DNA of 50,168 nucleotides from Escherichia phage vB_EcoS-DELF2: sequence record NC_049832.1; one strand, given 5' to 3'. This document shows, piece by piece, positions 1 to 50,168 of this stretch (positions are counted from its first letter, which is position 1; each line of letters opens with the position of its first letter). The translations under genes were made by a program, and so were the position numbers. The notes under the pieces were generated by a model. The model worked only from the letters and a program-made list of their open reading frames with translations. It ran no database searches and was not told the origin of the DNA.

Positions 1-231
1 TTTCATGCTTCCGGGATCTCGATGGACATATTCATCGGATTTTTTTCGTACACCAGTACGCCTTTAGTACCCGCACCGTCGATATCTTCAAGCTCTGCGA
101 TAGAGTCGATTTCGATACCAGCATTCTGAGACTTGAAATAGTCCAGGTAAGACATGGTAGTTTCAGGCATACGGATCGCCAGAACCTTACGCATGGACGG
201 CGGGATCAGAATGTTGGTTGCACGATGCTGA
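1..231. repeat. left copy of terminal direct repeat (about 227 bp, matches 49942..50168 with 3 substitutions)
   Basis: Positions about 5..231 realign to 49942..50168; ORF track confirms protein differences (MRKVLAIR vs MLMVLAIR) between copies. Confidence 0.85.
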
Positions 232-848
232 CCGCGAGTAATCGTCTCGATGGTTTCAATCGCCTGAGTCAATTCCGCTTCAGCCGTTTCCGGCTTCGGA
301 GTTGAGGCATTCATCCACTTACCGGAGGTAATTTTGGTGATGTTCGGATGGTTGAACACGGACACGATCTTGTGCGGCGCGGAACCTTTGAACACCAGAC
401 GGTTAACCAGTTGGTCATGCGCTAACTGACACGCGCTTGCCTTGCGGGTTGACAGCGGTCGACCAGTTGCCTGACCTGCTTTGATTTCGTCGATTGAAAT
501 CAGGTACGCGTTACCCAAGCGGAACACCTTACCGAACTCAGAAGTACCAAGCGCATCAACCAGAGGCAGGTCATCTGTATAGTCAGCGATAATCTGCGCA
601 GTACCAACCTTATCAAAGGTCATATACTCAAACGTCTTGTCGGTCGGAGATAGATCGGTAGTAACCGGGAATACTCGAAGTGCGGAGCCTGCCGGGTAGT
701 CTTCTTCATAGGACTGGCTTTTGATGCGGTGTAGTTCCTGAGCGGTCCAGATACCCATCGTTGCGGCTGCATCCTGTTTTACGCCAGCCTGGATCAGATA
801 CATTTCAACATTGCTCTTATCTGCTTCATCAAATTTTTTAGTAGTCAT
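3..848 (-). CDS. major capsid protein (281 aa as read here; C-terminus differs from the end-copy version)
   Basis: Position after scaffold/decoration genes in a head module; followed by strong hairpin+T-run; AAGGAG RBS before ATG at 848; stop TGA at 3..5 exists only in this copy. Confidence 0.7.
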   Translation of the reverse strand: MTTKKFDEADKSNVEMYLIQAGVKQDAAATMGIWTAQELHRIKSQSYEEDYPAGSALRVFPVTTDLSPTDKTFEYMTFDKVGTAQIIADYTDDLPLVDALGTSEFGKVFRLGNAYLISIDEIKAGQATGRPLSTRKASACQLAHDQLVNRLVFKGSAPHKIVSVFNHPNITKITSGKWMNASTPKPETAEAELTQAIETIETITRGQHRATNILIPPSMRKVLAIRMPETTMSYLDYFKSQNAGIEIDSIAELEDIDGAGTKGVLVYEKNPMNMSIEIPEA

Positions 849-865
849 GATTACTTCTCCTTAGT

Positions 866-896
866 TAATAAAAAAGCCGTGATTATGTTCACGGCT
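866..896 (-). terminator. hairpin (GCCGTG-N8-CACGGC) followed by T-run on minus transcript
   Basis: Plus strand reads ataaaaaa then inverted repeat; lies between decoration-like gene and capsid gene. Confidence 0.5.
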
Positions 897-939
897 TCAA
901 TAATAGCACTTTTTGTTAAAGCGTCAAAGTATTTTTGTG

Positions 940-1707
940 TTATGACTCTTCTTCTTCGGCTGGCGCAGCATCAAAAACATAAGTGATCGATTCTTTAGTT
1001 TTGCTGGCATCGTTAGCCGTCCAATTTACGATTACGCTACCTGCCGCATCTCCACCAATTGGAGTAAGAACGCCAGATTTTGGATCTATTGTCGCAATAT
1101 TTTCAGCATCAACAGACCACACGCCAGTTTTATCGGTGGCATTGTCAGGTTTTACAGCAACGTTAAATTGCACAGGTGCATTGTTTGGCTGAGGACTCTC
1201 CTTGTTAGTTGTAATCGTCGCAGACTCAACAAGAACCACGGGAGGTGGTGGAGGTGGAACAATAAAGGCATTTTGCTTAACCTGAACCTCAATAATGTAC
1301 CCGTCCTCGTGCTTAACAAATCCACCAGAAAAAGTCCAACCTACGGAACCAGAGCTACCAGTAACAACACCACCAGATCCAAATTGTAACTTTGAGAACA
1401 AGGCCGGAGCTTCATCAAGAGAAGTTAGCGTCCACACGCGACCATGAGAAACGACGTTGCAAACTTCACCGTCGAGGATTTTACCGCTCAGGTGTTCATA
1501 TTGGGAACGGAAAGCGATTCCGTAAGGTGTTTCACCATCAGTAAGCGTGGAAACAACCTTAACGCCGTCAACAATACCGATAACTTTAACAGCGGAGCCG
1601 AACTCAATATCGCCTTGAGCAACACAAGATCCATCAATATTGTAGGTTGAAGTATCCGAAAGATTACCAGGGCACGCCGGGCGTAACATTAAATTTTCGT
1701 AAGGCAT
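940..1707 (-). CDS. head decoration-like structural protein with poly-Pro linker and C-terminal Ig-like domain
   Basis: N-terminal domain paralogous to 1767..2243 (YNIDG.CV, PYG.A.RS, SGRVW.L motifs); PPPPPPP linker; beta-rich C-terminus. Confidence 0.45.
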   Translation of the reverse strand: MPYENLMLRPACPGNLSDTSTYNIDGSCVAQGDIEFGSAVKVIGIVDGVKVVSTLTDGETPYGIAFRSQYEHLSGKILDGEVCNVVSHGRVWTLTSLDEAPALFSKLQFGSGGVVTGSSGSVGWTFSGGFVKHEDGYIIEVQVKQNAFIVPPPPPPVVLVESATITTNKESPQPNNAPVQFNVAVKPDNATDKTGVWSVDAENIATIDPKSGVLTPIGGDAAGSVIVNWTANDASKTKESITYVFDAAPAEEEES

Positions 1708-1719
1708 AGTATTTTCTCC

Positions 1720-1750
1720 ATAAAAAAAGGACTACCCAAAAGGATAGTCC
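1720..1750 (-). terminator. hairpin (GGACTA...TAGTCC) plus T-run on minus transcript
   Basis: Plus strand aaaaaaa then inverted repeat between the two paralogous genes. Confidence 0.5.
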
Positions 1751-1766
1751 CCATATTAAACACTAA

Positions 1767-2243
1767 TTACAGTTGATGCAACTGAACTTCAACAAGCTGA
1801 ATGTCTTTATATTTGGTCCAGCCGCCAGCGTAGGTCCAAGTTGTTTCGATCGTACCATCAGATTTCTCTTGACCGTCAACGTCAAGTTTTACAGCTGTCC
1901 CGAAAGTTGGTGCTTCTTCTGATTTGGAAAGCATCCAGACTCGCCCGGAGGTCATGACGTTGATAGCACCGCCATCTTCGTAAATCATCTGATTATCTTT
2001 GTTCACAGTCTGCCAGTGAGATCGAATAGCTACGCCATACGGCACTTTAGACGATTCCATAGCCTTAACCAATTTATGGCCGTCAACGGCTTGGGCTTGA
2101 ACAACCTGTACGGCAGCGCCAACAAAAACATCACCTTCGTTAACGACGCAAGCGCCATCAATATTATACTTCGAAGTATCCGCAACCATACCCGGAAGCG
2201 CAATGGCCATGTCTCGCTGATAAGATGCATTAATCTGTGCCAT
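1767..2243 (-). CDS. head decoration-like structural protein (tandem paralog of 940..1707)
   Basis: Shared N-terminal motifs with 940..1707; head-module position. Confidence 0.45.
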   Translation of the reverse strand: MAQINASYQRDMAIALPGMVADTSKYNIDGACVVNEGDVFVGAAVQVVQAQAVDGHKLVKAMESSKVPYGVAIRSHWQTVNKDNQMIYEDGGAINVMTSGRVWMLSKSEEAPTFGTAVKLDVDGQEKSDGTIETTWTYAGGWTKYKDIQLVEVQLHQL

Positions 2244-2254
2244 GATATTTCCCC

Positions 2255-3367
2255 TTACATTACTTTGCTTAAACGTGAATTTGGCGTAACAGGTGCGGCG
2301 TCGTTTTTCTCTTCCGGCTTACCGCCTTCGATAGAATCGCCTTTTACCGCCTTACGCTGAATAGCCATAATATCAGAATCCTTAGCAACATCAAACATAG
2401 CGTCGATATATGCGTCTGATTTTTCGCTAACATCTTTATCAAGCATGGCTTTGACAACAGCTACCTTAACGTCTTTGATATCAAGACCATCATGCTTAAC
2501 GCCTGCGGTTTCCGCTACTGCGGTGACTTCAGCACGCGCTGCGGCGTCAGCTTTTTGCTTCTCTACTTCGGCCTTCACCAGTTCCGGCAGTGAGTCAACC
2601 TTAACCTTCAGCGCATCGCGCTCAGCTTCGAAGCCATCAGCTTTCCCCTGAATGGCGGCAATCTGCGCGGTTAATTTTTCGATATGGTTCGCAACATCTT
2701 CGGTCACTTCCACATCAACTGAGTCGATCTTAATTTTTTTCATTTTCTTGTCCTCGTTAGTTAATTGAACGTTATTATCATACGGGAACTCCTGCTCGGC
2801 ATCAAGGTTTAATTTAGCAATTCCAGCGCGACCCTTGAAAACAAGTGCAATGTGGTTTACCTTGATGTTTGTTTGAACAGCATCGAATTTAACCCAACCT
2901 TCAGGCGGCGCTTCGTCCTGTTTCATATCCTCTTCGAAGATATATTCTCCAGTCTCATTTGAACCCCATCCCGGCTTATCAATATCTACTGACGTGTAGC
3001 CAACAGATAATTCACCAGCTTCTTTTGCTTTAGCCTTGCTGATCGCGTAGTCGCTGTAAATGCTCAAAGGGACTTCAACTCCAACACCTGAAGCAATACC
3101 AGCGCCAGCGCACGATCCTACAACAACGTCCTTAGCATTTTGGGGAGTCACCGTTACGTGACCGACCGTGATCGGCTTGCCTGCAAAACTTTGCAAGGAA
3201 TCTTGCTTGAAAACTTCGGACGCCGGACGGAACTCAACGCGATCGCCGTGTGGAGTCTTGTAAACCTGAGCACCGATTCGCGCCACGATGGGACGGTCAA
3301 CCAAAAAACCATTATCATCAAAGTGCGCCTTGATTTTTACGGAATCGAATCTTTGTTTTGCCTTCAT
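2255..3367 (-). CDS. prohead protease/scaffolding protein (coiled-coil C-terminus)
   Basis: Position between head morphogenesis and decoration/capsid genes; Ala/Lys/Glu-rich coiled-coil tail; AGGAG RBS before internal ATG at 3367. Confidence 0.5.
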   Translation of the reverse strand: MKAKQRFDSVKIKAHFDDNGFLVDRPIVARIGAQVYKTPHGDRVEFRPASEVFKQDSLQSFAGKPITVGHVTVTPQNAKDVVVGSCAGAGIASGVGVEVPLSIYSDYAISKAKAKEAGELSVGYTSVDIDKPGWGSNETGEYIFEEDMKQDEAPPEGWVKFDAVQTNIKVNHIALVFKGRAGIAKLNLDAEQEFPYDNNVQLTNEDKKMKKIKIDSVDVEVTEDVANHIEKLTAQIAAIQGKADGFEAERDALKVKVDSLPELVKAEVEKQKADAAARAEVTAVAETAGVKHDGLDIKDVKVAVVKAMLDKDVSEKSDAYIDAMFDVAKDSDIMAIQRKAVKGDSIEGGKPEEKNDAAPVTPNSRLSKVM

Positions 3368-3369
3368 TT

Positions 3370-4131
3370 TTAATCTCCTGTAGAAAAGTCTGGAACAGCC
3401 CAACAGCGGCAATTGTATTCTTCACCCGGGAATACGTGATCGGAATCTACCGCTATACGCTTACCTTCCCATCTTACATGCTTTTCACGTTCACGTAAAT
3501 CCATCACCCCGCGCCAGAAATAGTAAGAGACTCCAGCGTCTTTTATGCGCTGCCGCATCAGTCTACTGTTCCATGTTCCGACAATCCCCGACGCTCTGTT
3601 TTTGGACCAATTCCGGTAAATACCAAATCGCTCCTTAGCAAGTTCAACAACAAAATCCTTGCTTTTACCCTGACCGGATGCCGCACGAAGTTTATCAGTG
3701 AAATCAGTAACCATGTTGGCGGCAAATTTCCTGATAGAAGTAGTCACCTGCGATCGCCACAGATTATATTGTCCTGAGTACCAGTTTTCGGCAGCGGTAG
3801 GACCAATCAGGGCAAGTAGCATTACGGCTTGATTCTTCTTACCTCCAGCATTTCGAGCTATTCGCAACCACTGCTTAGAGTTGAATTTATAGATAGTTAG
3901 CGCGACGGATGATAGAGATCCGATAATCGGCGCGATTAGAGATTCGACGTAATCAAGCAATGACCTTTCCGCTTGGTCTATCTCTTCGTCGGTAGCGTCA
4001 AATTTCATCGGCTTTAATTCGTCACGCATTCTTTCTGTTAGTCTGGCTGCAACATCCTGTAAGGAGCGCGACATTGCGCGCTCGCTCATTTCAGGATAGC
4101 GCCACTGTGTTGCAACGCCATTAATTTTCAT
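3370..4131 (-). CDS. head morphogenesis / minor head protein
   Basis: Immediately downstream of portal, overlapping start/stop; typical position of SPP1 gp7/Mu F-like protein. Confidence 0.45.
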   Translation of the reverse strand: MKINGVATQWRYPEMSERAMSRSLQDVAARLTERMRDELKPMKFDATDEEIDQAERSLLDYVESLIAPIIGSLSSVALTIYKFNSKQWLRIARNAGGKKNQAVMLLALIGPTAAENWYSGQYNLWRSQVTTSIRKFAANMVTDFTDKLRAASGQGKSKDFVVELAKERFGIYRNWSKNRASGIVGTWNSRLMRQRIKDAGVSYYFWRGVMDLREREKHVRWEGKRIAVDSDHVFPGEEYNCRCWAVPDFSTGD

Positions 4132-5404
4132 CTTCTAACTTCTCCCCTAATCCCGGTTCCGGCTCTGTTGTTTCTTCCGGTTCGCGAATGTTGATGTTAT
4201 TACCATCCTTGAGTTTGAACTCAGGCGCAATGGATCGCAACGTGTCGCGAGCTTCTTCCAGATCGATGATTTGCTCGGTGATAGCTTTCGTTACCGACTC
4301 AATGTTGTTCTTCGTGATCTCGGATTCTTCTTTCTTGCTCGGGACCGACAGCGGATCAAACTCGATGGACCACTCTTCTTCGTCAACAATGAACGGCAAC
4401 AAGAACTCAAGAAGCGGTCTGTAATCCTCTTCACGCTTGCGATCGACTAACTTATAGAAAGTCTCAAGCGCCGTGTTTTGGCTCGCTGATACGCCGCCTA
4501 CGTTCTTATTCTTAATGATAATCTCATGAATCCCGGATAGGGAGACAATGCGGTCCATCTTGCTTGATAAGAACTCAGGAACTCCGCTGATATCAGAGTT
4601 TAGAACGTCGTATTCTTCCGTCTCGGCATCGATACCGATCGCACGGCCAACACCTGAATTATCGTCAACCTGAGCCAGTCTCAAGCGCGCTGCATACCGA
4701 GCATTATCATCATCACACATTTCAACAAGACCTTTGACTTTCCATACCGCCTGCTGCTTACGCCTCAGGATCTGAGTCGCTAGAGATTCGCAATAGTCGT
4801 AGTCGCAGATCGCATCAATTAGTGACTTATTCAAAACTGAAGCACCCCACCCTTGATTCTGTTTTCTAGTCTGAGGTGTTACTCGTTCACCATCAGCAAT
4901 AAAAATTCTTGTGTGGTGGATTAAGTAAGGTTGAATATTGTCACCAGGAGACACCTTATAGATCTCAGGTTCACCATAGCGAGGCGATCGAGCATTAGTT
5001 ACTCTTTTTTCGATTGTAATTGCGAATCTATCATAAACACGCACACCTTCAAGTTTAGCTCCAGGTTTAACTGGACTGGTTAGCATTCTGTTGTCGTTAA
5101 TGATCGCTACAATAGCCGCTCCACCGTATAGGCGCGCCCAGCAAAGAACATCAACCAAGCTAGGATCAATTTTGTAACTATCCCACAGAGATTTGAACTC
5201 CTTTTCATCCTTGACTCCTGATATTTTAAAACCAGCCGTAACCATCTCTTCAGGGATCACGTCGACAATTCTTTTCGCTGTCGCGTTGTCGTTATAGAAT
5301 GAGCCGACGTTATATGACGCATCAACCATAAAAAATGGTTTAGGTGAGCCGTCCGCGCCGCCGTTAAAGATATCGTTATAACCATCATGCTTAACAATTT
5401 TCAT
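4121..5404 (-). CDS. portal protein
   Basis: 427 aa ORF directly downstream of large terminase; acidic C-terminus; conserved module order. Confidence 0.7.
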   Translation of the reverse strand: MKIVKHDGYNDIFNGGADGSPKPFFMVDASYNVGSFYNDNATAKRIVDVIPEEMVTAGFKISGVKDEKEFKSLWDSYKIDPSLVDVLCWARLYGGAAIVAIINDNRMLTSPVKPGAKLEGVRVYDRFAITIEKRVTNARSPRYGEPEIYKVSPGDNIQPYLIHHTRIFIADGERVTPQTRKQNQGWGASVLNKSLIDAICDYDYCESLATQILRRKQQAVWKVKGLVEMCDDDNARYAARLRLAQVDDNSGVGRAIGIDAETEEYDVLNSDISGVPEFLSSKMDRIVSLSGIHEIIIKNKNVGGVSASQNTALETFYKLVDRKREEDYRPLLEFLLPFIVDEEEWSIEFDPLSVPSKKEESEITKNNIESVTKAITEQIIDLEEARDTLRSIAPEFKLKDGNNINIREPEETTEPEPGLGEKLEDEN

Positions 5405-5414
5405 ACTTTCCCTC

Positions 5415-5444
5415 CAATAAAAAAGGCCGTCAATTGACAGCCTT
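5415..5444 (-). terminator. weak hairpin containing perfect palindrome GTCAATTGAC, plus T-run (possible attenuator or binding site)
   Basis: aaaaaaGGCCGTCAATTGACAGCC between terminase large subunit and portal. Confidence 0.3.
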
Positions 5445-5460
5445 GATTATATCTCATTTA

Positions 5461-7044
5461 TTACCTCTTAACCATCCCAGCGAGTCGCTTCATTCTCTCG
5501 ATAGGATCATCAATGGTCAGCAATTCGATGTTCGCCGCATCCATGAAGTTATCGACGATATCATCATGCGGATGGGTGTCATCGTAAGTGAAGGCGCTAT
5601 GTTCTGCGATGATTTCCGCAAGCATAGGGTGCTCTTCTGGAAGAACCACGCGACCAGCCTTAATGACTGGCTGAGCATCCATAGCTCGGGTAACTTTGTC
5701 TTTGTTACGCTGCAATGGAGTGATGGATATCGGAGTCTTTTTCCTTAGATTCTGGATTAAGCCCGTACCGCTCGCCTTATCTTCCACATAGATTTTACGA
5801 AGCACCCCCATTGATTTATTGTGCCTCCACGCCTGGTTGACGAAAGCGGTAAATTGCTTCTCCATATCCGGCGCTTCCCACTTTCCGCGAATGCCGTCGA
5901 TAAAGTAAACCTTATCATTCTTCTTGCCCCACAAACAAAATACCGTGTAGTCGTTTAGCTCGCCTGTCTTCTGAGCGGTATCGGCAGTGATGAATCGGTA
6001 ATCATATTTACCCGGATCTGGCTCGTCAGCGTCAAGGCTGCTGCCGTAATAAGTCCACCACTCTGAGTTAAACACGGAGCCACCCAGCGCGATCGGCTTC
6101 TGCTGATACTGAGAATCAAAGGTATACTGATCTGCTTCTCGTAAAGCTAGCAGGTCGTGCACACTTTCCTTGCTGGGCCAAAAAGAGTAATGCTTAACGC
6201 CATCCAATTCTACATACTCAGACGATAAAACATCACGAGCAAAGTAAGGCTGTAACCAATCAGGAAGTGTCTTTCCGTATTCTTCCGTCACCAGCGCCGG
6301 GATTGAGATTTGGTCAAACTCAATACCCATCCCGCCATTCATCATGAACCAGGTTGAATCCTGAGCATGTAGTCGTTGCTGAATTGCAATAATAGGCGTC
6401 TCGTTATGCATACGACGGGATCGAATGGTGTTTTTCAATAGCATGTGCGTACGCTCACGCTTAACCTTTGAGAACATATCATCAGGCTTGTCGATATCGT
6501 CGAGCATTACCATCCCGGAGAATCCCGGCATCATGTAGCCACCACGAGAACCTGTAATACGACCTCCAGCCGCAGCTGATATCAACTCAAACCAAACCTT
6601 TCCGTCTTCGTTAAGAACCTGCATCTCCTCGTCTTTCGATGTACCGAACTTGCAAGGCCATAGCTCTTGAAATTCGTTGCTGCTGATAATCTCACGGACA
6701 CGCTTACTGTTACGCTTAACCAAGCTGTCGGCAAACGACACGTTAAGGTTTCGAACCTTCTTACACTTGAGCATTGCGTACACCGGAAGGTGAATTGAGA
6801 ACACTTCAGTTTTACCGGAGCCTGGCGTGACGTTAAAGATTGTATTACCTCGCCGCCCTGCAATAATTTCCTCCACTTCGTGACATAGGTAAAGGTGATG
6901 CCAGTTAGGCTGGAACTGCTGAGCCTGCATAAGCTGGAACCAGATCCGAATCATTTTTTCGAAATTGGCCTCGCTCATTTTCTTGATCGCTAACTTCTGC
7001 GTTGCGTTAAGGTCTTCCCATTGAATCATGATTAAGTCTCCCAT
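5461..7044 (-). CDS. terminase large subunit
   Basis: Walker A-like NVTPGSGKT, Walker B-like VMLDDID, C-terminal nuclease acidic motifs (ITADTA, DDTHPHDDIVD). Confidence 0.9.
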   Translation of the reverse strand: MGDLIMIQWEDLNATQKLAIKKMSEANFEKMIRIWFQLMQAQQFQPNWHHLYLCHEVEEIIAGRRGNTIFNVTPGSGKTEVFSIHLPVYAMLKCKKVRNLNVSFADSLVKRNSKRVREIISSNEFQELWPCKFGTSKDEEMQVLNEDGKVWFELISAAAGGRITGSRGGYMMPGFSGMVMLDDIDKPDDMFSKVKRERTHMLLKNTIRSRRMHNETPIIAIQQRLHAQDSTWFMMNGGMGIEFDQISIPALVTEEYGKTLPDWLQPYFARDVLSSEYVELDGVKHYSFWPSKESVHDLLALREADQYTFDSQYQQKPIALGGSVFNSEWWTYYGSSLDADEPDPGKYDYRFITADTAQKTGELNDYTVFCLWGKKNDKVYFIDGIRGKWEAPDMEKQFTAFVNQAWRHNKSMGVLRKIYVEDKASGTGLIQNLRKKTPISITPLQRNKDKVTRAMDAQPVIKAGRVVLPEEHPMLAEIIAEHSAFTYDDTHPHDDIVDNFMDAANIELLTIDDPIERMKRLAGMVKR

Positions 7045-7068
7045 GTGGGCGCTCGCGCGCCCCTAACG

Positions 7069-7593
7069 TTAAAGCATATCAAGAATGCTGTTTACTGCCT
7101 CTTTCATTGCATCCTCAGTAGTGGCGACTACTGTCGATGCGGAAGCTGACGAGTTTTCGATATTGATTGAGGCTGGCTTATCGATTCCGAGATCCTTACC
7201 GATAAAGGAGGCGTTAATAACACCGTTGGCGGCAAGCTGGAATTTTTGCTCGTTGATTACCGACTCCACAAACTCCATAACCTCACTGTATTCTTCCTCT
7301 CGCTTCCACTTAATGATTGCGGCCTCGCTTGCACCGATGAATAGTCGGTATCCGGTCCAGGTGAAGACGCGCGGCTTATGGACAAGCGACTCATAAACGC
7401 CACCCTGAAAGCTGGCTGATTCTGACGCCTTGATTGCGTTGTCCTCGGCCCATTCGAAATACTTCACTGACAGATCGAATAGTTGCTCTGGCGTCATCGC
7501 CCGGTTTTTCGCGAGTACAGTGCCAAACTTTTTCTTGTATAGCTCTTTGAAATTACCTCCCTGGACTACGGGAGCGTTCTTAGGTTCACTCAT
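7069..7593 (-). CDS. terminase small subunit (putative)
   Basis: Immediately upstream of large terminase; GAGGA RBS before ATG at 7593 (track start 7617 lacks RBS). Confidence 0.45.
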   Translation of the reverse strand: MSEPKNAPVVQGGNFKELYKKKFGTVLAKNRAMTPEQLFDLSVKYFEWAEDNAIKASESASFQGGVYESLVHKPRVFTWTGYRLFIGASEAAIIKWKREEEYSEVMEFVESVINEQKFQLAANGVINASFIGKDLGIDKPASINIENSSASASTVVATTEDAMKEAVNSILDML

Positions 7594-7644
7594 AAATACA
7601 TCCTCTTTGTTTAACATTTAGTGCTATTTTACCATATTGCAGGC

Positions 7645-7669
7645 ATAAAAAAACCCGCCGGAGCGGGTT
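7645..7669 (-). terminator. intrinsic terminator hairpin AACCCGCC-GGAG-CGGGTT plus T-run
   Basis: Between 7678..7905 and terminase small subunit; followed by TGgTAAAAT extended -10-like element. Confidence 0.6.
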
Positions 7670-7677
7670 AGTGTTTA

Positions 7678-7905
7678 TCACGACAATCGTCGTTTAATGC
7701 CTTTAGGGTGGGTCTGAGCTTTAGAGTAGCAGTGAGCAAGGTCGCCAGTCATTTCCCATTGATCCTTCTTAGGCGAGTAGGTCAGCCATACACCAGTTTT
7801 ATCCTTAGCGTCCATCGCAATTGCTGCCGCAACAAGTGCGAAGCAAGCAAACAAACCAGCACCAAAAATAACAACACCAGCGATAATCAATAAAAAAATT
7901 GTCAT
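7678..7905 (-). CDS. small membrane protein
   Basis: N-terminal hydrophobic helix (IFLLIIAGVVIFGAGLFACFALVAAAIA). Confidence 0.4.
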   Translation of the reverse strand: MTIFLLIIAGVVIFGAGLFACFALVAAAIAMDAKDKTGVWLTYSPKKDQWEMTGDLAHCYSKAQTHPKGIKRRLS

Positions 7906-7906
7906 G

Positions 7907-8092
7907 TTAAATCTCCTTGATTAATTCAATATTTATTTTGTGAGTGTCAAGGTTAGCGCCGGAAAGTTTTTTTGCTTTCGTGATGGCTTCTGCCTGACTG
8001 GTTGCTGATAATTCAGTTTCGAAAGATTGCTTGCAAGACTGGCAAAACATACCCATCTTTCGAATGATTAATTTAATTTTGAATCGCTTCAT
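7907..8092 (-). CDS. hypothetical protein
   Basis: 61 aa ORF; alternative 47-aa ORF in another frame at about 8095..8238 also possible. Confidence 0.25.
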   Translation of the reverse strand: MKRFKIKLIIRKMGMFCQSCKQSFETELSATSQAEAITKAKKLSGANLDTHKINIELIKEI

Positions 8093-8398
8093 CTTCCTGC
8101 GCCTTAATCATAACGCCAGCAATGCGACCAATAACAGCCTCGCCAGGATTTAATCGTTTTTTATAACGAGTGGTTTCACCGTTGCGAGTTACTTTAATTT
8201 CAATTTTTACTGTTTCATCTTTAGTGTTTTGCATTATGCAATCCTCTTGAATTTTTGCCGCTTACGGGTCTGCGGCGTTGCTTAACCACTATGCAACCGA
8301 GCTTGTTATCTGGAAGTGTGAGAATCGTCTCACGCGTTGCGCTTAGTTGCGCCTCGTCTGTCTACGGGATTAATACTATCACCGCTCAGGGATTTAGG

Positions 8399-8602
8399 TC
8401 AATCATTAATTTCGAATTGCCCCTTAGTCATATCCTGCGGGTAATCAATCTCGTGCAGGTTTCCATCATCGCCGTACACGAATACCAATCTCTTTGATTT
8501 ACTAACCTTTTCCACATCGCACGCGCACCCTGCTGAGAAAGCATCGCTATTGCGTGAAGTGACACATCGAACCTGCTCGCCTTTCTTCGGTAAGTTAGCC
8601 AT
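8399..8602 (-). CDS. hypothetical protein
   Basis: ORF in co-oriented early block. Confidence 0.4.
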   Translation of the reverse strand: MANLPKKGEQVRCVTSRNSDAFSAGCACDVEKVSKSKRLVFVYGDDGNLHEIDYPQDMTKGQFEIND

Positions 8603-8832
8603 TATTCGTAATCCCCTTCTTTGTTCCCTACGCGCCCAGCAATATACCCGGCAGTCCAGACAAATTTGTATCGGTCAATGAGTAGCTCGACCTTTTTGTG
8701 GTGAGTCGAGATTACATCAATCATGATCTTGTCGTTCTTCCGATCTTCTTTCTTCATTCCGCTGACGAATTTGTTTAATTCTTTCGCGGCACGCTTTACA
8801 ACATTCCACTCCGCTTCGCTTAAACCGAACAT
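8602..8832 (-). CDS. hypothetical protein
   Basis: ORF with overlapping stop/start to neighbours. Confidence 0.4.
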   Translation of the reverse strand: MFGLSEAEWNVVKRAAKELNKFVSGMKKEDRKNDKIMIDVISTHHKKVELLIDRYKFVWTAGYIAGRVGNKEGDYE

Positions 8833-9176
8833 TATTTATCACCTTTGAATGAAAAACTTACACCTAAAACCTGATTGCAAACCGACTCCATGTATCGCAA
8901 CTGGTATTGAGCAACCTTTGAAGGACTTAATTCATCGGTAAATAAATCCTCAACGTTGATTTCTTTTTTATGCTTGCGCTTCCATGCCTTGATGATATTT
9001 GGCAGGATTCGCTCGCTTTTCCAGGCTGCAAACTCAGCTTGGTTGGTTGATGCTGGGGTAAGCTGTCTTTCGATCTGGTTAAGAATCTCAGCGGTGGCGC
9101 CTTTTACGTGAAGTTGTTCGCCGATAGTGTCGAGGATTTCACGCGCTTGTTTATCTGACAGGTTAATCGTGATCAT
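8832..9176 (-). CDS. hypothetical protein
   Basis: ORF with overlapping stop/start to neighbours. Confidence 0.4.
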   Translation of the reverse strand: MITINLSDKQAREILDTIGEQLHVKGATAEILNQIERQLTPASTNQAEFAAWKSERILPNIIKAWKRKHKKEINVEDLFTDELSPSKVAQYQLRYMESVCNQVLGVSFSFKGDK

Positions 9177-9382
9177 GCTTCTTCTCCTTCATCTTCGATC
9201 GGGGTAAAAAACTGAGTGTTCACTGCCGGGTTATAATAAACCCCATCGTCATAGTCGCTTTCTTTCACTTCAATGAAAACGTCGCAACCGTCATGCATGA
9301 AGTCACCATTATCAGTATGAACCAGTTCGAATACTTCAGAAGTTTTAGTGCAAGTGAAAAACTTATCAGTTGATACCATCAT
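9173..9382 (-). CDS. hypothetical protein
   Basis: Preceded by palindrome motif 9440..9458 plus TGaTATAGT extended -10 and GAGAGA RBS. Confidence 0.45.
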   Translation of the reverse strand: MMVSTDKFFTCTKTSEVFELVHTDNGDFMHDGCDVFIEVKESDYDDGVYYNPAVNTQFFTPIEDEGEEA

Positions 9383-9439
9383 TTCGATTTTCTCTCTTCG
9401 TTGTCGATGAGGTAACTATATCAAATCACCCCACCGACG

Positions 9440-9458
9440 TTTTAGCAATTCGTGCTAT
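9440..9458 (-). promoter_or_regulatory. palindrome motif copy (plus-strand text TTTTAGCAATTCGTGCTAT) with extended -10 TGaTATAGT 19 nt downstream
   Basis: Read directly; upstream gene stop codon TAG embedded in motif. Confidence 0.55.
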
Positions 9459-10027
9459 TTGTTGATGAACGTGGCGGCTATGTGCTGAGCGGTAATTTCT
9501 GGATTACCTTCGACAGAAAAGAAGTCACATTCCTGATAACCGTTGACCCCGATCATATCGTCAAGATAGATATAGTCGCGGCTGTCGTTGTCAAAGTTGC
9601 AACCGTTGCGATGGATTCGACATAGCTTTACCTGGATATCACCTTCAATCATCTGCAAGATCTCGTCTTTGAATCCACCGTCAGTAAATACCGAAAGGGA
9701 GTGAGACTCTTTCACCTTGCTTTCCGCTCGCATACCGAAGAAGCGATTTCCGAACTGCGGTTTGATGACCTCCTCGCTAATCCAGATCATAAACTGGCGC
9801 GGGCTTTTACCGTTCAGGATTGATGCTGGCTCTTCTTTATAGCGACGGTCCTCATACAAGAACATGAAATATTCGAAATTAGCCTCACCCAGGATTGCTC
9901 GAGCAATCTCAAACATTGGAGCTTTGAAGCTGCGTAGCGCTACATGATCGTAAGTGTCAGCCAGGATGCATCCGATAGTGTCTTTTCCTGCGCCCGGCGC
10001 GCCGTTTAAAATGATAGCTGTTTTCAT
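9455..10027 (-). CDS. P-loop nucleotide kinase (adenylate-kinase-like GAPGAGKDT)
   Basis: N-terminal P-loop NGAPGAGKDT. Confidence 0.55.
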   Translation of the reverse strand: MKTAIILNGAPGAGKDTIGCILADTYDHVALRSFKAPMFEIARAILGEANFEYFMFLYEDRRYKEEPASILNGKSPRQFMIWISEEVIKPQFGNRFFGMRAESKVKESHSLSVFTDGGFKDEILQMIEGDIQVKLCRIHRNGCNFDNDSRDYIYLDDMIGVNGYQECDFFSVEGNPEITAQHIAATFINK

Positions 10028-10135
10028 GTCAGTATCTCCCTAAAAATAATTTTGCCACATTGATGATGGTGTGATTGATGATTAACAGGATGATAACCGT
10101 TAACACCGGATGTGCTGCAATAAATTCGTACAGGT

Positions 10136-10669
10136 TCATTCATCTACCCCGTGAGATTTTAAATGATCGTGGACTTTATCGCCATAGTCAACTACAGCGT
10201 AAGTGGTTATTCCAAGCGACCGGAATAATGGAATAATTTGCGGTGAGTCATCCCAGGCCGCCAGGATATTCTCAATACCGATCGCGCGCACCGCCTCTTC
10301 TTTCATCACCGTGTCTTTGCGGTTGTCGGTATGCGGTCGCATAATCAGGTAATCATATCGAGCACCGTGATGCTTAAGCCATAACTCATATGCGTAACGA
10401 ACCTCATCGCTTCGCCCGGTTAAAATGATCACATGATGACCAGCGGCAAACATAGAGTTCATCACTTCAATCGTACTCTTGATTGGGTTATCAAATATTG
10501 CCGCTCGGTTAAACTCAGACCAGCTTTCAGTTAAGTGCAAATCCTTTGTCGGTAGCAGGTGAAGTAGACCAGATCCATCGCTAAGTGTTCCGTCAAAGTC
10601 AAAGATTGCTACGCGGCGAGTGCCGAGAAACAGGCTGATTGTCTTGCCCCAAATGGTAATTTTATCCAT
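10136..10669 (-). CDS. HAD-superfamily phosphatase
   Basis: HAD motif I FDFDGTL near N-terminus; adjacent to the kinase. Confidence 0.55.
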   Translation of the reverse strand: MDKITIWGKTISLFLGTRRVAIFDFDGTLSDGSGLLHLLPTKDLHLTESWSEFNRAAIFDNPIKSTIEVMNSMFAAGHHVIILTGRSDEVRYAYELWLKHHGARYDYLIMRPHTDNRKDTVMKEEAVRAIGIENILAAWDDSPQIIPLFRSLGITTYAVVDYGDKVHDHLKSHGVDE

Positions 10670-10734
10670 GATTTATTCCTCTGATTGGTTGCTTAACTCA
10701 ACGAAGGGCATTCTATCAAATACCCTTGAGCAAG

Positions 10735-10753
10735 TTTTAGCAATTCGTGCTAT
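10735..10753 (-). promoter_or_regulatory. palindrome motif copy with TGaTAGAAT -10, then CAACCAATCAGAGGA leader
   Basis: Read directly; 19-nt spacing to -10. Confidence 0.55.
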
Positions 10754-11199
10754 TACCAGCAACTGATCTCATAGTTGGCCCAGTCATCAAAGCTACCCTG
10801 ACTGAAGTCGCCGCCGTAGTTTTCCATAAGTTCATCGATCAGGAAGTAGCAGGATTCGCCGTTACGATAGAAGTATGAATCTGCAACGCTGCGCGCCCAA
10901 TGTCCGGCATCTTTCTTGCTCATCTTCCAGTACTTCATTGCAATCTTCTTGAATGCACGCACGACGCGCTTGCGGATCTTAATATGCTTATACACCGCGT
11001 TGCATCCATAGGCCATATATTCGTTATTGCCAAGATTCTGCATAATGTAAGGATTTACTTCTTTTGACGTAATCATCAGATCGCCATTGACGCAACGCGA
11101 ATCATGAATACTTGCTGTCATGTAGTGACCTTTGAACATTCCAATGCCGTGCAGGGTGTATTCATCGTTAGGCGCTTCAATGCAGATTAAGTGTTTCAT
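10753..11199 (-). CDS. hypothetical protein
   Basis: GAGGA RBS before internal ATG at 11199; track start 11241 sits too close to the motif. Confidence 0.4.
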   Translation of the reverse strand: MKHLICIEAPNDEYTLHGIGMFKGHYMTASIHDSRCVNGDLMITSKEVNPYIMQNLGNNEYMAYGCNAVYKHIKIRKRVVRAFKKIAMKYWKMSKKDAGHWARSVADSYFYRNGESCYFLIDELMENYGGDFSQGSFDDWANYEISCW

Positions 11200-11254
11200 T
11201 ATCGTTTCCTCGTTTGTTGGTGTAGGTGAATCATAGCGCATTCCCCTTGATAGG

Positions 11255-11273
11255 TTTTAGCAATTCGTGCTAT
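11255..11273 (-). promoter_or_regulatory. palindrome motif copy with TATGAT -10
   Basis: Motif encodes C-terminus NSTNC-stop of ORF 11257..11475. Confidence 0.5.
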
Positions 11274-11475
11274 TCGTTTTAATAGTGATGCAAAAATAAT
11301 TTTTTAAGCACGTCACCACGCGCGCTGAATCGACTTGTGGGAGCCTTAAAATTTCGTGGACCAATTGCACTTCCGACACCTCAGATTTGTAGTAGTGTGC
11401 GATTCTGGAGGTATTTGGGCGCATTCCTTCCACTGCTTCACGTGCTGCATCTTCTGCTGTCATGATAGTAGCCAT
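11257..11475 (-). CDS. hypothetical protein
   Basis: 72 aa ORF ending inside motif. Confidence 0.35.
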   Translation of the reverse strand: MATIMTAEDAAREAVEGMRPNTSRIAHYYKSEVSEVQLVHEILRLPQVDSARVVTCLKNYFCITIKTNSTNC

Positions 11476-11632
11476 AAAACACCCTTAAGAGATAATGTCA
11501 GGACCAGGAGGCAGAATAGCAACTCCTGAAATGATGGAGGTTCGTTTTTCCAGTTCTTAAAGTCAGGCATAAAGCTATTCATATTCACCTCATAAAAATA
11601 GGGAACCGCTCAGGAACGATTCCCACTTTAAG

Positions 11633-12289
11633 TTAAACTACGAAAAACAGCACGATAAGAGAAATAAGAAGCACGGTAGCCATAGCCAGGTTTGCCAGAT
11701 TATCAATGTCCTTGTTGGTCAGCTTAGGCTTGACTTTACCATCAACTTCGATTGGCTTAACGCTGTGAATCTTACCCTGTTCGATGCGGAAAGCGCCCTT
11801 GATTCGACTGGTATTAAATTTCTGCTTCTTCTTGCCGAACGTTGCAAACTTAGTGCCGCCGCTATTCCATCGCAGACCTTCGCCATTATGCGTTACGGTA
11901 GCGATGCGGTGACGGCCCGTGTCGTCAGTAAGCGCTACAGTGTGCTTTGCGTGCTCAGTAGGAACGTCGTAGATTTTTCCAACAGTAAATTTTTTGGTGT
12001 TATCGCTGATACATTCAAATTTCATAAATTTTACCTCTTTATTATGCAGTTGATTGATTGCTTCGATTACGTCTCTAAATTTAACACCATCCACGATTCG
12101 ATGGAAGATATATTTTGAACTACCGCAATACGGCAGGAAAATTTCCTGGTACTCGTGACGACGGATGATGTTAACGTTGCTACCGTGCTCATCCACGACA
12201 ACGAAGCTGTCGTCATTGACGTGAGCGCCTTCGTAGATTTTTCCCCACTTAAAGCCCGATCCGTTACTTGATACGCATTCAAATTTCAC
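11633..12289 (-). CDS. repeat-domain protein with C-terminal transmembrane anchor
   Basis: Internal duplication (MKFECVSSNGSGFKWGKIYEG / MKFECISDNTKKFTVGKIYDV); hydrophobic C-terminus. Confidence 0.45.
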   Translation of the reverse strand: MKFECVSSNGSGFKWGKIYEGAHVNDDSFVVVDEHGSNVNIIRRHEYQEIFLPYCGSSKYIFHRIVDGVKFRDVIEAINQLHNKEVKFMKFECISDNTKKFTVGKIYDVPTEHAKHTVALTDDTGRHRIATVTHNGEGLRWNSGGTKFATFGKKKQKFNTSRIKGAFRIEQGKIHSVKPIEVDGKVKPKLTNKDIDNLANLAMATVLLISLIVLFFVV

Positions 12290-12573
12290 GGTCTAACCTT
12301 CCTATAAGGCTTGATTGATAACATCACGTATTGCGTGAAGTCGCATTCCTGATCGTCATACCCGCGATTGATGTATGGAGTCACGTCTGTAACATCGGAT
12401 ACCCTGGCGTGAACTTCCCACCCGGTAAACTCACCGCGATCGAACTCTCGTAGCTCCAAGATATCGCCAATCTGGAAGTTGCGGTCATTGATGCGGAACT
12501 CTGCCGTTTTGGTTCCGTTCATTACTCCAATGAAATGTACCGGGTTAATTTTTAACTTATGACTCTTGCTCAT
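12286..12573 (-). CDS. hypothetical protein
   Basis: ORF preceded by motif copy, TATAGT -10 and CAACCAATCAG leader. Confidence 0.45.
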   Translation of the reverse strand: MSKSHKLKINPVHFIGVMNGTKTAEFRINDRNFQIGDILELREFDRGEFTGWEVHARVSDVTDVTPYINRGYDDQECDFTQYVMLSIKPYRKVRP

Positions 12574-12636
12574 GATGCCTCACTGATTGGTTGCCATTCT
12601 TCAATAAGGCCACTATATCAAATGGACTTGCGGAAG

Positions 12637-12655
12637 GTTTAGCAATTCGTGCTAT
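12637..12655 (-). promoter_or_regulatory. palindrome motif copy with TGaTATAGT -10
   Basis: Read directly; approximate coordinates. Confidence 0.5.
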
Positions 12656-12800
12656 CGTTTAACGCACATAGTTTTTACTTCATATCCGAACGGCTTGTTT
12701 TCTGCAATCACCTCCCGAGCTTTTTCGCATGATTGCTGACTTTCCATGTATACGTGATCCGACCCGGTGCTCATCAAGATAATCAAGACCCATGCAGCCA

Positions 12801-13307
12801 TTATTTCACCTCATAGCGGACGAGCGTTCCGCGCTTAATGCTGATTTCACCTGATACCGTCTTGTTCTTGAAGCCGCCGTGATGCAATAGAATCGTGATG
12901 ATATCGTCGTGCACCTCAATAGTTTTTGGTGTCGCGGTAATCTCAATCCAAGAATCGCTGCTAATCTGGACACCTTTTAGCGTTGCGCTAAGTGGCACAT
13001 TCTCGATCTGAGTGCACTGTAGCGATGGCTTGATTTCTGGCTTTGCAGCTTTGAATATTGAGCCTTCAATCTTCCAGCTATCATACAAGCTGTAAGTATT
13101 CTGATTGTCGCTCATAATGTAGTAGTAGTCCTTATCTGGTGAATTTTCTTTATTCACTCCGTTATGTCTGGCAATAAACCACTCCAGCTTAAGCTGCGAT
13201 ACCTCATCAGTGGCCCACTTTCCTTTATCTTCACTGGTGAATGTAATTTCACCGCAACCCAGGCTGATAAATTTAATCGGGAATTTTACGTCTTCTAATT
13301 TTAACAT
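12801..13307 (-). CDS. hypothetical protein
   Basis: 168 aa ORF in early block. Confidence 0.45.
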   Translation of the reverse strand: MLKLEDVKFPIKFISLGCGEITFTSEDKGKWATDEVSQLKLEWFIARHNGVNKENSPDKDYYYIMSDNQNTYSLYDSWKIEGSIFKAAKPEIKPSLQCTQIENVPLSATLKGVQISSDSWIEITATPKTIEVHDDIITILLHHGGFKNKTVSGEISIKRGTLVRYEVK

Positions 13308-13362
13308 GATGCTTTCCTCTTAGTGGTTTATGTGGGGATTATACCAGTCAGGCCAAATCCCC

Positions 13363-14130: not shown

Positions 14131-14139
14131 TTTAACATC

Positions 14140-15429: not shown

Positions 15430-15431
15430 GA

Positions 15432-33400: not shown

Positions 33401-33859
33401 TCAGAATGGGATATCATCGTCAAATGTTGACTGAGGGTTCGGTTGTGGTTGTTGTTGAGTTCGCTGTTGTTGCTGAGGGTTCGGTTGTGGTTGTTGTTGA
33501 GTTCGCTGTTGTTGCTGAGGCGATCGCTGTTGTTGATTGCTTTGTCCTCGTTGACTGAATACCAGCTTAGGAAAATCAGCGGCCTGCAATGAATTGTAAA
33601 CCTTTCCGTTGTGCTCACGGGATGAGATCTTCAACGTTTCGCATGATACAGATATAACTCGACCAACCTGGAACGCTTCACGATACCAGTCAGCAAGGCC
33701 AGGCTTTCCACCATCACTAAAAAAGAATGTGTAGTTGGTGTATTCTCGATCGCCATCACGAGGTTTATAGCTCTCTGCCAGTTCGATGATATAAGTATTG
33801 CCGCCGTTACGCTCCAGAATCTTAGGTTCTTTTCGGATCTCGCCAGTGATAATATGCAT
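33401..33859 (-). CDS. ssb: single-stranded DNA-binding protein
   Basis: C-terminal acidic tail DDDIPF; Gln/Pro-rich linker with tandem repeat. Confidence 0.85.
   Translation of the reverse strand: MHIITGEIRKEPKILERNGGNTYIIELAESYKPRDGDREYTNYTFFFSDGGKPGLADWYREAFQVGRVISVSCETLKISSREHNGKVYNSLQAADFPKLVFSQRGQSNQQQRSPQQQQRTQQQPQPNPQQQQRTQQQPQPNPQSTFDDDIPF
33431..33540. repeat. 42-bp tandem repeat (about 2.5 copies) inside SSB linker
   Basis: ctgagggttcggttgtggttgttgttgagttcgctgttgttg repeated; encodes QQQRTQQQPQPNPQ twice. Confidence 0.85.
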
Positions 33860-47053: not shown

Positions 47054-47127
47054 GATATTTCTCCTGATTGGTTAATGGCACTTTTTGTTAAAAGAGAATA
47101 GTGCAAACTTGATACGATGATTTTACA

Positions 47128-48766: not shown

Positions 48767-49043
48767 TCTCTATATAGTCACCTTCTTTTATTTCATGATC
48801 ATTATTGAAGATCCCCAAAAGGTCTGAGGCGCGGATAGTTTCCCCGTCAATCTCACGCGCGTTCGGTCTTCTCGTCGCGCCGGATATTGGAATAACCTGT
48901 TCCATTGGTGGGATCTCGAATCCGTTTTCATCATATCCGTATTCAACTTGTTTTATCAGGCTCATAGGTCTTGAAGGATCGGTGAAGAAAGCCACGCCTT
49001 TGCGAGCCATTCTTTCAATCTGTGAGTAGTTCATTAGTGGCAT
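48663..49043 (-). CDS. head closure / head-tail joining protein (putative)
   Basis: Position in neck module. Confidence 0.4.
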   Translation of the reverse strand: MPLMNYSQIERMARKGVAFFTDPSRPMSLIKQVEYGYDENGFEIPPMEQVIPISGATRRPNAREIDGETIRASDLLGIFNNDHEIKEGDYIEIDGIRHVVVDARPVQASLEPVAYRPVLRRVSVGG

Positions 49044-49444
49044 CCTCCACGGAGTCCTGTCATTAATGCGAATCTACCACGGCGTCGCGCTTTAAGCTGT
49101 TCGAACATCTTACCCCACGGCGTCGAAAGCATCATGTTTCCTGACTGGTTCTTCGTAACCTCTCCGAAAGTCTGGCTAAATTCACCACTCAGGGAGAATG
49201 ACGTAACGCGTCGTGAGTACGATTCAAGATCCTCATCTTCACCTTTTAGCGCCCCATCAAGGAAAGCAAGGTGCAATGCATAAAGAGCAAGCGCCTTGAC
49301 GTATGCATCTTTAAATGTCTTCTGGCATACAAATAGCTCAGCCATTTCTACCCATGCATAAAGCGTTTCGTCTGGAACATTGCGAAGTGCCGGAACCAGC
49401 TTTCTCATTTGCTCGACCACTTTGTTTAATGTTTCTTGATCCAT
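49034..49444 (-). CDS. head-tail connector/adaptor protein (putative)
   Basis: Position after capsid gene; GGTGG RBS before ATG 49444. Confidence 0.4.
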   Translation of the reverse strand: MDQETLNKVVEQMRKLVPALRNVPDETLYAWVEMAELFVCQKTFKDAYVKALALYALHLAFLDGALKGEDEDLESYSRRVTSFSLSGEFSQTFGEVTKNQSGNMMLSTPWGKMFEQLKARRRGRFALMTGLRGGCH

Positions 49445-49454
49445 AATTTCCACC

Positions 49455-49480
49455 TATAAAAAAGGCGCATTAAGCGCCTT
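49455..49480 (-). terminator. hairpin AAGGCGC-ATTAA-GCGCCTT plus T-run
   Basis: Read directly. Confidence 0.55.
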
Positions 49481-49485
49481 GTTGA

Positions 49486-49776
49486 TTAATAGTATTCGCC
49501 GCCGTCTTCAAGCTCTTTTACGCTCATCTTATCCCACGGATCAGGTTTTTTAAGTTTAGCCATCTCTGCGCGGATTTCCCGGTTGGTGGCACTGTCGTCT
49601 TTTACTTCGATTTCTTCGCGAGCAATCAAGCAACGCAGCCCGGGCAATTCAAGTGCGGATGCTGGGAGTGTCACCTCTTCATCCGGGAGAACCTTTGCGA
49701 ATGAGCCATCTTCAAGACGGAACATCTGAAGCGCTACACCAACGTTTACGATAACAACAGTTTTTTCTTTAGCCAT
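49486..49776 (-). CDS. hypothetical head-associated protein
   Basis: 96 aa ORF between capsid gene and connector. Confidence 0.4.
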   Translation of the reverse strand: MAKEKTVVIVNVGVALQMFRLEDGSFAKVLPDEEVTLPASALELPGLRCLIAREEIEVKDDSATNREIRAEMAKLKKPDPWDKMSVKELEDGGEYY

Positions 49777-49789
49777 TTTGATTTCTCCA

Positions 49790-49818
49790 ATAAAAAAGGG
49801 ACCAACTAAGTTAGTCCC
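49790..49818 (-). terminator. strong terminator GGGACTAACT-T-AGTTGGTCCC plus TTTTTTATTGG after capsid gene
   Basis: 10-bp stem with one mismatch. Confidence 0.7.
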
Positions 49819-49825
49819 TATAATA

Positions 49826-50168
49826 TTACACGCCAGTGATTAAGACAATAGTCATCGGACGATAAATTGTAAGGCCAGTACACTTGGAGGTGCAAGGCAC
49901 TTTAAAGTGAAGGTCTTTCGGCTGCGCTGGCAGCATGTTAAATGCTTCCGGGATCTCGATGGACATATTCATCGGATTTTTTTCGTACACCAGTACGCCT
50001 TTAGTACCCGCACCGTCGATATCTTCAAGCTCTGCGATAGAGTCGATTTCGATACCAGCATTCTGAGACTTGAAATAGTCCAGGTAAGACATGGTAGTTT
50101 CAGGCATACGGATCGCCAGAACCATAAGCATGGACGGCGGGATCAGAATGTTTGTTGCACGATGCTGA
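49826..50168 (-). CDS. major capsid protein 3' portion in end copy (continues at window start; 38-aa longer C-terminus than left copy)
   Basis: Identical to residues of 3..848 except RK to LM; reads through where left copy has TGA. Confidence 0.5.
   Translation of the reverse strand, partial: QHRATNILIPPSMLMVLAIRMPETTMSYLDYFKSQNAGIEIDSIAELEDIDGAGTKGVLVYEKNPMNMSIEIPEAFNMLPAQPKDLHFKVPCTSKCTGLTIYRPMTIVLITGV
49938..50168. repeat. right copy of terminal direct repeat
   Basis: Matches about 1..231 with 3 substitutions plus divergent first 4 nt. Confidence 0.85.

Follow-up and report, generated by a model that had tools for sequence, protein, structure and literature searches.

The terminal repeat and split capsid gene of Escherichia phage vB_EcoS-DELF2 very probably stem from an untrimmed assembly overrun

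The record of Escherichia phage vB_EcoS-DELF2 (NC_049832.1), whose whole stretch of 50,168 nt was analysed and is referred to here as the window, begins and ends with nearly the same sequence, and this repeat falls within the major capsid gene, which lies on the minus strand. This raises the question whether the phage carries a genuine terminal repeat and variant forms of its capsid protein, or whether a circular assembly was printed linearly with its overlap left in place. A search of a literature collection found no relevant paper on vB_EcoS-DELF2. The best end-to-start offset of the window is 49,937, at which positions 1-231 match 49938-50168 in direct orientation with 226 of 231 bases identical; since the second-best offset reaches only 8/14, this match is far beyond chance. 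A repeat search recovered this pair at 99%, with the bounds 5-231 / 49942-50168, and confirmed the preliminary description, in which about 5..231 recurs at 49942..50168 with three substitutions. Taken over the full overlap, the copies differ at five positions, namely 3 (T/A), 4 (C/A), 187 T / 50124 A, 190 C / 50127 A and 216 G / 50153 T. In the left copy (1..231) the TC at 3-4 is deviant and the remainder, including 187, 190 and 216, carries the bases of the relatives; in the right copy (49938..50168) the deviant bases are 50124 (A), 50127 (A) and 50153 (T), and AA at 49940-49941 agrees with the relatives. The first four nucleotides had been described as different between the copies; only 3 and 4 differ and the TT at 1-2 is common to both, but the TGA reported at 3-5 is present. 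Two of the other substitutions are non-synonymous, as had been noted, and change ...PPSMRKVLAI (left) to ...PPSMLMVLAI (right), and the third is synonymous. An internal repeat able to force an assembly break was not detected (no shared k-mer of at least 14 nt elsewhere in the genome), and composition, tRNA and Rfam scans revealed nothing special at the window ends.

The capsid gene is present in the window as two pieces. An apparent ORF of 281 aa (3..848, minus strand) is ended by a presumably artefactual TGA (TCA at 3-5 on the plus strand) and was deposited as 'major head protein' (BBU41772.1 / YP_009902313.1). The true 3' part of the gene lies at 49826..50168 (minus strand) with the authentic stop at 49826-49828, and within it an ORF of 101 aa (MLMVLAI..., 49826..50131, minus strand) was deposited under the same name (BBU41850.1 / YP_009902391.1). 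The left copy therefore stops 38 residues before the end copy, in agreement with the preliminary description. Seven nucleotides past the authentic stop, a terminator-like hairpin followed by a T-run is found (49797..49819, minus strand), and the T1 record annotates a rho-independent terminator at the same position after its capsid gene. Joining the two copies restores a single 960-nt ORF of 319 aa with the C-terminus ...RPMTIVLITGV, which substantiates the earlier proposal that the capsid gene spans the junction. The same length of 960 nt is annotated for the capsid genes of both ISF002 and T1, and the joined capsid differs from that of ISF002 in two residues. PDB chains 9kmg_A and 9kzj_A (319 aa; T1-like capsid structures) align to it over residues 1-319, and Pfam PF09950 is matched over 1-251 of its 251 positions, reaching capsid residue 319. 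Residues 282-319 include the peptides DLHFK, VPCTSK and CTGLTIYRPMTIVLITGV, and the short version of the capsid would end ...SIEIPEA.

When one copy of the repeat is removed, a seamless circle collinear with independent relatives results. The clean unit genome (5..49941; 49,937 nt) contains only alleles common to relatives and, once circularised, yields the 960-nt capsid gene. The corrected junction is crossed unbroken by 59 phage records (query coverage at least 80%), by ISF002 at 99.8%. T1 is likewise continuous over it, T1 5960-15983 corresponding to window 10029-5 and T1 15757-16200 to window 50168-49726, and the window is collinear with T1 over T1 1-16,200. In general, Tunavirus records show 89-99.8% nucleotide identity to the window. 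Among 69 reference records, none except Escherichia phage EF3-1 starts at the break point of the window, and a reference-guided break at a record start was rejected for this reason. The offset match, the seamless circle and the 59 junction-crossing records together bear out the earlier suggestion of a circularly permuted genome with an untrimmed assembly overlap.

T1-like phages use pac/headful packaging and have no fixed ends (PMC5238451, PMC11447400, PMC13164509). The window encodes a predicted terminase large subunit (5461..7044, minus strand) with a Terminase_6C domain, at a position that matches the T1 terminase large subunit, and a predicted small subunit (7069..7617, minus strand) of the P22 gp3-like DNA-packaging family (GP3_package match), that is, of a pac/headful system. 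Judged from its identity and synteny with T1 and ISF002 and from these TerS and TerL genes, the phage is a pac/headful T1-like phage (Tunavirus, Drexlerviridae). The terminal redundancy produced by headful packaging in T1 and TLS, which encode TerS and TerL of the same family, is something other than the overlap described here: real redundancy is of kilobase scale, varies between virions and is absent from assemblies, whereas the overlap measures 231 nt. In T1 the terminal redundancy is about 2.8 kb. For TLS, about 1 kb per headful was reported (PMC11447400).

The deviant bases lie 3, 4, 16, 42 and 45 nt from their own contig end, and at each of the five mismatches the interior copy agrees with ISF002 and T1. 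A 74-mer taken from the interior copy is 100% identical to 8 phage records, and the corresponding end 74-mer finds no match above 95.9% among the 172 records that it hits. The right-end alleles (A, A and T at 50124/50127/50153) are carried by no phage record and are absent from all six readable loci (ISF002, T1 and four IMG/VR contigs), which have T/C/G throughout. All five mismatches are transversions; natural differences in the capsid gene comprise 58 transitions and 30 transversions relative to T1, and 2 and 0, respectively, relative to ISF002. Three differences in 45 nt, compared with 2 in 960 nt, correspond to a Poisson P of about 1e-4. From these patterns in the sequence we infer that the five deviant bases are probably read or assembly errors. 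Because the interior copy agrees with the relatives and circularisation leaves a single capsid gene, neither alternative C-termini nor a genuine terminal repeat nor population variants find support.

Thus, the window is very probably a circular T1-like assembly printed linearly with an untrimmed overrun of 231 nt, and the variants and the short capsid are probably errors at the contig tips. Headful cutting from concatemers would generate circularly permuted virion DNAs, and because of this packaging mode shotgun reads would close into a circle. The assembler may then have opened the circle at an arbitrary point in the major capsid gene and overrun its own start by 231 nt, and this overrun would have been left untrimmed. 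The outermost contig bases, where reads are few and read ends are of low quality, may have received five miscalls, two of them at 3-4 and the other three within 45 nt of the right end. The miscall pair at 3-4 introduces an in-frame TGA into the capsid gene, and gene calling would therefore have yielded two capsid fragments: at the record start a 'capsid' of 281 aa and, at the record end, the 101-aa fragment with a spurious RK>LM. An overlap of 231 nt with mismatches is unlike the exact k-mer overlap of a de Bruijn assembler, which counts against this explanation.

It was also proposed in the preliminary description that a heterogeneous population underlies the substitutions. In this case minority genomes with RK>LM, and possibly with a truncated capsid, would be present, and the two copies would have sampled different haplotypes. 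Phage lysates can be polymorphic, and there are indeed five differences between the copies, two of them changing amino acids. However, heterogeneity gives no reason why each derived allele should occur only in the copy located at most 45 nt from a contig end (P about 0.007, counting three independent clusters), with the interior copy agreeing with the relatives, or why all differences should be transversions. The LM variant substitutes R220 and K221. R occupies position 220 in 118 of 120 homologues; at position 221, 105 of them have K and 15 have R, and L or M occurs at neither position in any homologue. The last 38 capsid residues are present in 120/120 homologues (119 of them fill 35 or more of the 38 columns) and form the most conserved stretch of the capsid (mean top-residue frequency 0.93 versus 0.81). 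The deviant residues and the truncation, each found in 0/120 homologues, thus affect the best-conserved regions of the protein, and the truncation would delete the 38 residues that are most strongly conserved in the capsid fold. The absence of the right-end alleles from all phage records and from the four readable IMG/VR contigs argues in the same direction, and the metagenome and genome collections gave no match to either version of the right-end stretch. We consider a heterogeneous population very unlikely, and this part of the preliminary description is not upheld.

A second, co-isolated T1-like phage could have supplied the right-end reads and produced a chimeric end. Contamination with T1-like phages is common, and there are close relatives with 97-99% identity, but the end copy equals the interior copy save for three private bases, and the contrast between the two 74-mers given above is at odds with a foreign donor. 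The divergence of such a donor would be expected to consist of transitions and synonymous substitutions; what is seen instead is a pair of neighbouring, non-conservative replacements of invariant residues. A chimeric end has a very slim chance of being correct.

An observation that points to a non-arbitrary break comes from Escherichia phage EF3-1 (PQ571291.1), a T1-like phage in whose record the first 141 nt recur unchanged as the last 141 nt. The record is broken in the same region of the capsid gene, one boundary being 11 nt from that of the window, and its annotation contains no capsid CDS. Unlike in the window, the overlap of EF3-1 is exact and shorter (141 versus 231 nt), and its genome is only about 92% identical. 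If breaks are arbitrary, a boundary coincidence of this kind has a chance of about 0.03 over some 65 relatives, and it counts against an arbitrary opening of the circle. Both break points are located at a small stem-loop close to the 3' end of the capsid gene (AGCAT-GTTAA-ATGCT; window 49934-49948). It is tempting to speculate that T1-like DNA has a site-specific discontinuity here (a preferred break, a nick or a secondary packaging cut, for instance) that seeds contig ends, and that the 'errors' at the tips represent damage or minority molecules at this site, yet we regard this as very unlikely. Loop output of MEGAHIT, in which 141 is the default largest k, was considered as a common source of the overlaps in EF3-1 (141 nt) and the window (231 nt) and was rejected, since no ordering rule could be discerned in the contig starts and the window overlap is inexact.

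A genuine terminal repeat had been offered as an alternative. A direct repeat of some 230 bp that delimits fixed virion ends, as in T7-like or T5-like phages, merits next to no credence: the repeat is direct, stands at both record ends and has in EF3-1 a neighbour broken at nearly the same place, but it interrupts an essential gene midway through the morphogenesis operon, the 59 relatives are continuous over the site, headful packaging without fixed ends is documented for T1-like phages, the T1 record origin, reported as the location of the T1 pac site (PMC7718038), maps to window ~17,065, the copies differ at 5/231 positions, and lengths of 231 and 141 nt (EF3-1) fit an assembler overrun and not a conserved repeat.

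The terminal repeat and the capsid variants are very probably an ordinary artefact and not biology, and the value of the case lies in curation. As in other untrimmed overlaps of circular assemblies, the window shows a direct end repeat, gives a seamless circle after trimming and is broken within a gene, which results in two fragments; split ORFs at contig ends are a common problem according to the Phage Annotation Guide (PMC8785237). It departs from the usual case in that the overlap is inexact owing to the five tip miscalls, so that exact-match terminal-repeat detectors would miss it, and in that one miscall creates a stop, which makes the fragment resemble a complete ORF. Two predicted capsid products with different C-terminal ends also bear a superficial likeness to gene 10A/10B of T7. 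There, frameshifting at a slippery site provides programmed alternative capsid C-termini, both forms arising from one locus. In contrast, the 'forms' in the window are one locus printed twice, and the short form needs two miscalled bases at the contig start. Circularisation leaves one gene with one C-terminus and 319 aa, and none of the 120 homologues lacks the C-terminal 38 residues; the two alternative C-termini of the preliminary description are accordingly dismissed.

The public record of vB_EcoS-DELF2 exceeds the unit genome by 231 nt, giving 50,168 bp in place of 49,937 bp. GenBank, RefSeq and UniProt hold two capsid fragments, of 281 aa (UniProt A0A679F155) and of 101 aa with the spurious RK>LM (A0A679F2D7), and the single 319-aa protein is missing. 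Such fragments distort protein clustering, statistics on genome length and gene count, and completeness calls that are based on terminal repeats. One of the 90% clusters in the protein collection consulted is represented by the 101-aa fragment itself, and the sole full-length protein clustering with this fragment (P0145) has RK, not LM.

When the start of the window was slid along its end, a single outstanding match was obtained at an offset of 49,937, at which 226 of 231 positions were identical between the left copy (1-231) and the right copy (49938-50168), and the second-best offset reached 8/14. The same pair was recovered independently by a repeat search of the window (5-231 / 49942-50168). 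The five mismatches (left versus right copy) are found at positions 3 (T/A) and 4 (C/A), and at 187 T / 50124 A, 190 C / 50127 A and 216 G / 50153 T. The sequence of the end repeat, including the ORF and residue differences, had been described correctly in the preliminary description, except that the first four bases were said to differ between the copies, which holds only for bases 3 and 4. The end repeat is an overlap left untrimmed in the assembly of a circularly permuted phage genome and not a real biological feature; the window ends work like, and are, this familiar artefact. The clean unit genome is window 5..49941; it holds only alleles supported by relatives, and closing it into a circle restores the capsid gene. 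The length of the DELF2 unit genome is corrected to 49,937 bp. Base composition showed no discontinuity at the window ends.

Both the ends and the interior of the window match T1-like phages (Tunavirus, Drexlerviridae) with 89-99.8% identity. A query of 1,159 nt built across the corrected junction was spanned in one piece (at least 80% of the query) by 59 phage records, with ISF002 at 99.8%. T1 is continuous across the break, as T1 5960-15983 corresponds to window 10029-5 and T1 15757-16200 to window 50168-49726; therefore, ~227 nt of single-copy T1 sequence are matched twice by the window. The break interrupts the minus-strand morphogenesis operon midway; this operon runs from TerS (7069-7617), TerL (5461-7044) and portal (4121-5404) through a Mu-F-like protein, a protease-region protein and a decoration protein to the Ig-domain protein (940-1707; gp02 of the DELF2 record) and then the capsid, followed by DUF7444 and DUF4054. 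Whole-window scans found no tRNA genes or Rfam family matches. Compared with known Tunavirus records the genome is mosaic: identity to ISF002 is 99.8% in the capsid region, but over window 232-25000 the best-matching records have only 91-93% identity (82-96% coverage).

In a four-way alignment, ISF002 and T1 share the right-copy bases at sites 3-4 and the left-copy bases at 187/190/216; at all mismatches they thus side with the copy lying deep inside the contig. The deviant bases are 3, 4, 16, 42 and 45 nt away from their own contig end. With random placement in the overlap, a deviant allele falls within 45 nt of its own end with P = 0.195 per event, giving P ~0.007 for three independent clusters of mismatches. 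For the interior 74-mer (158-231), 8 phage records show 100% identity, whereas no phage record exceeds 95.9% identity to the end 74-mer (50095-50168). T/C/G was present at the three right-end sites in 6/6 readable loci (ISF002, T1 and four IMG/VR contigs), and the metagenome and genome contigs searched gave no match to either version of the right-end stretch. The five mismatches are transversions without exception; between this capsid gene and that of T1 there are 58 transitions and 30 transversions, and between it and that of ISF002 only 2 transitions. For three differences within 45 nt, set against 2 in 960 nt, the Poisson P is ~1e-4. Translated on the minus strand, the left copy reads SMRKVLAI and the right copy SMLMVLAI, the third change being synonymous. 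An R occupies capsid position 220 in 118 of 120 homologues, position 221 carries K (105 homologues) or R (15), and neither L nor M was found at 220/221; more distant solved capsids retain basic residues at the equivalent positions. From their position, type and absence elsewhere, we infer that the five deviant bases are probably sequencing or assembly errors. An overlap of 231 nt with mismatches is not what a plain de Bruijn k-mer overlap looks like.

The record of the relative EF3-1 (PQ571291.1), ~92% identical to the window genome-wide, also has untrimmed ends (first 141 nt = last 141 nt, 100%). It is broken in the same part of the capsid gene and therefore has no annotated capsid CDS; one boundary lies 11 nt from the left boundary of the window. 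Such a coincidence has a chance of ~4e-4 per pair, or ~0.03 over ~65 relatives. A small hairpin (AGCAT-GTTAA-ATGCT, 49934-49948) is located at the break site, and no repeat of the break-site sequence was found elsewhere in the window genome. The coincidence is most likely explained by a shared pipeline or by an assembler start that depends on sequence, and a real physical DNA discontinuity at this site is very improbable.

TerS of the window belongs to the P22 gp3 DNA-packaging family. According to the literature, T1 and its relatives package DNA by the headful from a pac site, and their genomes are circularly permuted and terminally redundant (PMC5238451); T1-like phages 'lack fixed physical genome ends' (PMC13164509). 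For TLS, ~1 kb of extra DNA per headful was reported (PMC11447400); the 231-nt overlap is not this kilobase-scale redundancy of T1-like virions. Reads of such circularly permuted, terminally redundant virion DNA join up as a circle on assembly, and a contig that writes the circle out linearly can run past its own start to give an end overlap. The overlap is not a terminal repeat of the T7/T5 type, since it splits an essential gene, its copies are inexact and the site is not an end in the 59 relatives. The T1 pac site was placed in the untranslated region with which the T1 record begins (PMC7718038); the counterpart of this region is at window ~17,065, ~17 kb away from either window end. Two 75-nt blocks of very high AT content (16783-16857 and 35991-36065) share 71% identity; the first, at a minus-to-plus ORF switch, adjoins this T1 record origin point and is near the region in which the T1 pac site was placed (PMC7718038).

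The apparent capsid ORF of 281 aa (3..848, minus strand) includes the left copy and ends at a TGA (TCA at 3-5). In the right copy, reading on the minus strand continues 38 residues further to a stop at 49826-49828, within a right-end ORF of 101 aa (MLMVLAI..., 49826..50131, minus strand). By exact look-up the 281-aa ORF is BBU41772.1 / YP_009902313.1, on a contig of 50,168 nt, and the 101-aa ORF is BBU41850.1 / YP_009902391.1, both named 'major head protein' of vB_EcoS-DELF2; because of this, the window is the whole public genome record with fragments of one gene at its start and end. Joining the two copies gave a 960-nt ORF, the length of the annotated capsid genes in ISF002 and T1, encoding 319 aa with 2 residues different from the ISF002 capsid. 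The joined protein aligns over residues 1-319 with 9kmg_A and 9kzj_A, solved T1-like capsid chains of 319 aa, and the Pfam Major_capside profile (PF09950) was matched over 1-251/251, reaching residue 319. A hairpin that resembles a terminator and has a T-run (49819-49797, minus strand) lies 7 nt past the authentic stop, where T1 has an annotated terminator. The last 38 residues were found in all 120 aligned homologues (at least 35 columns filled in 119, 31 in the remaining one) and are the most conserved capsid stretch, with a mean top-residue frequency of 0.93 versus 0.81 for residues 1-281. A capsid ending ...EIPEA had no counterpart among these homologues. The capsid is one 319-aa chain with one C-terminus from a single locus, which corrects the two fragments present in RefSeq and UniProt; the two ends are not a programmed pair of C-termini, because of the single locus and the absence of the short form in the 120 homologues.

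The 19-nt motif TTTTARCAANNNGTGCTAT (reverse complement ATAGCACnnnTTGyTAAAA) occurs in 23 copies in the window (up to 2 mismatches; 0.05 expected by chance), mostly intergenic and mostly oriented along transcription, for example at 9440-9458, 10735-10753, 11255-11273, 13924-13942, 15683-15701, 16947-16965, 17919-17937, 27433-27451 and 29942-29960. The motif matches aaATAGCACnnnTTGnTAAAA, a 21-nt repeat described in TLS, T1 and Rtp, and the TLS authors posed the function of that repeat as an open question (PMC11447400). Three copies face against local transcription (903-921, 31484-31502 and 47075-47093), and one counter-oriented copy is located upstream of the capsid start codon (848), at a distance of 55-73 nt. 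In T1, the interval separating the Ig-domain and capsid genes is annotated with a promoter and a terminator. A tandem repeat at 33425-33535 (period 42, 2.3 copies, 98% matches, 21-nt sub-period) is located inside an ORF of 152 aa (33401..33859, minus strand). Finally, NCBI bacterial assemblies assigned to Ralstonia pseudosolanacearum, Pseudomonas aeruginosa and Lactobacillus gallinarum, all unlikely hosts, hold proteins that cluster at 90% identity or above with the DELF2 capsid and its DUF7444 neighbour. A number of these proteins are on ~50-kb contigs, and their presence looks like contamination of sequencing projects by T1-like phages.
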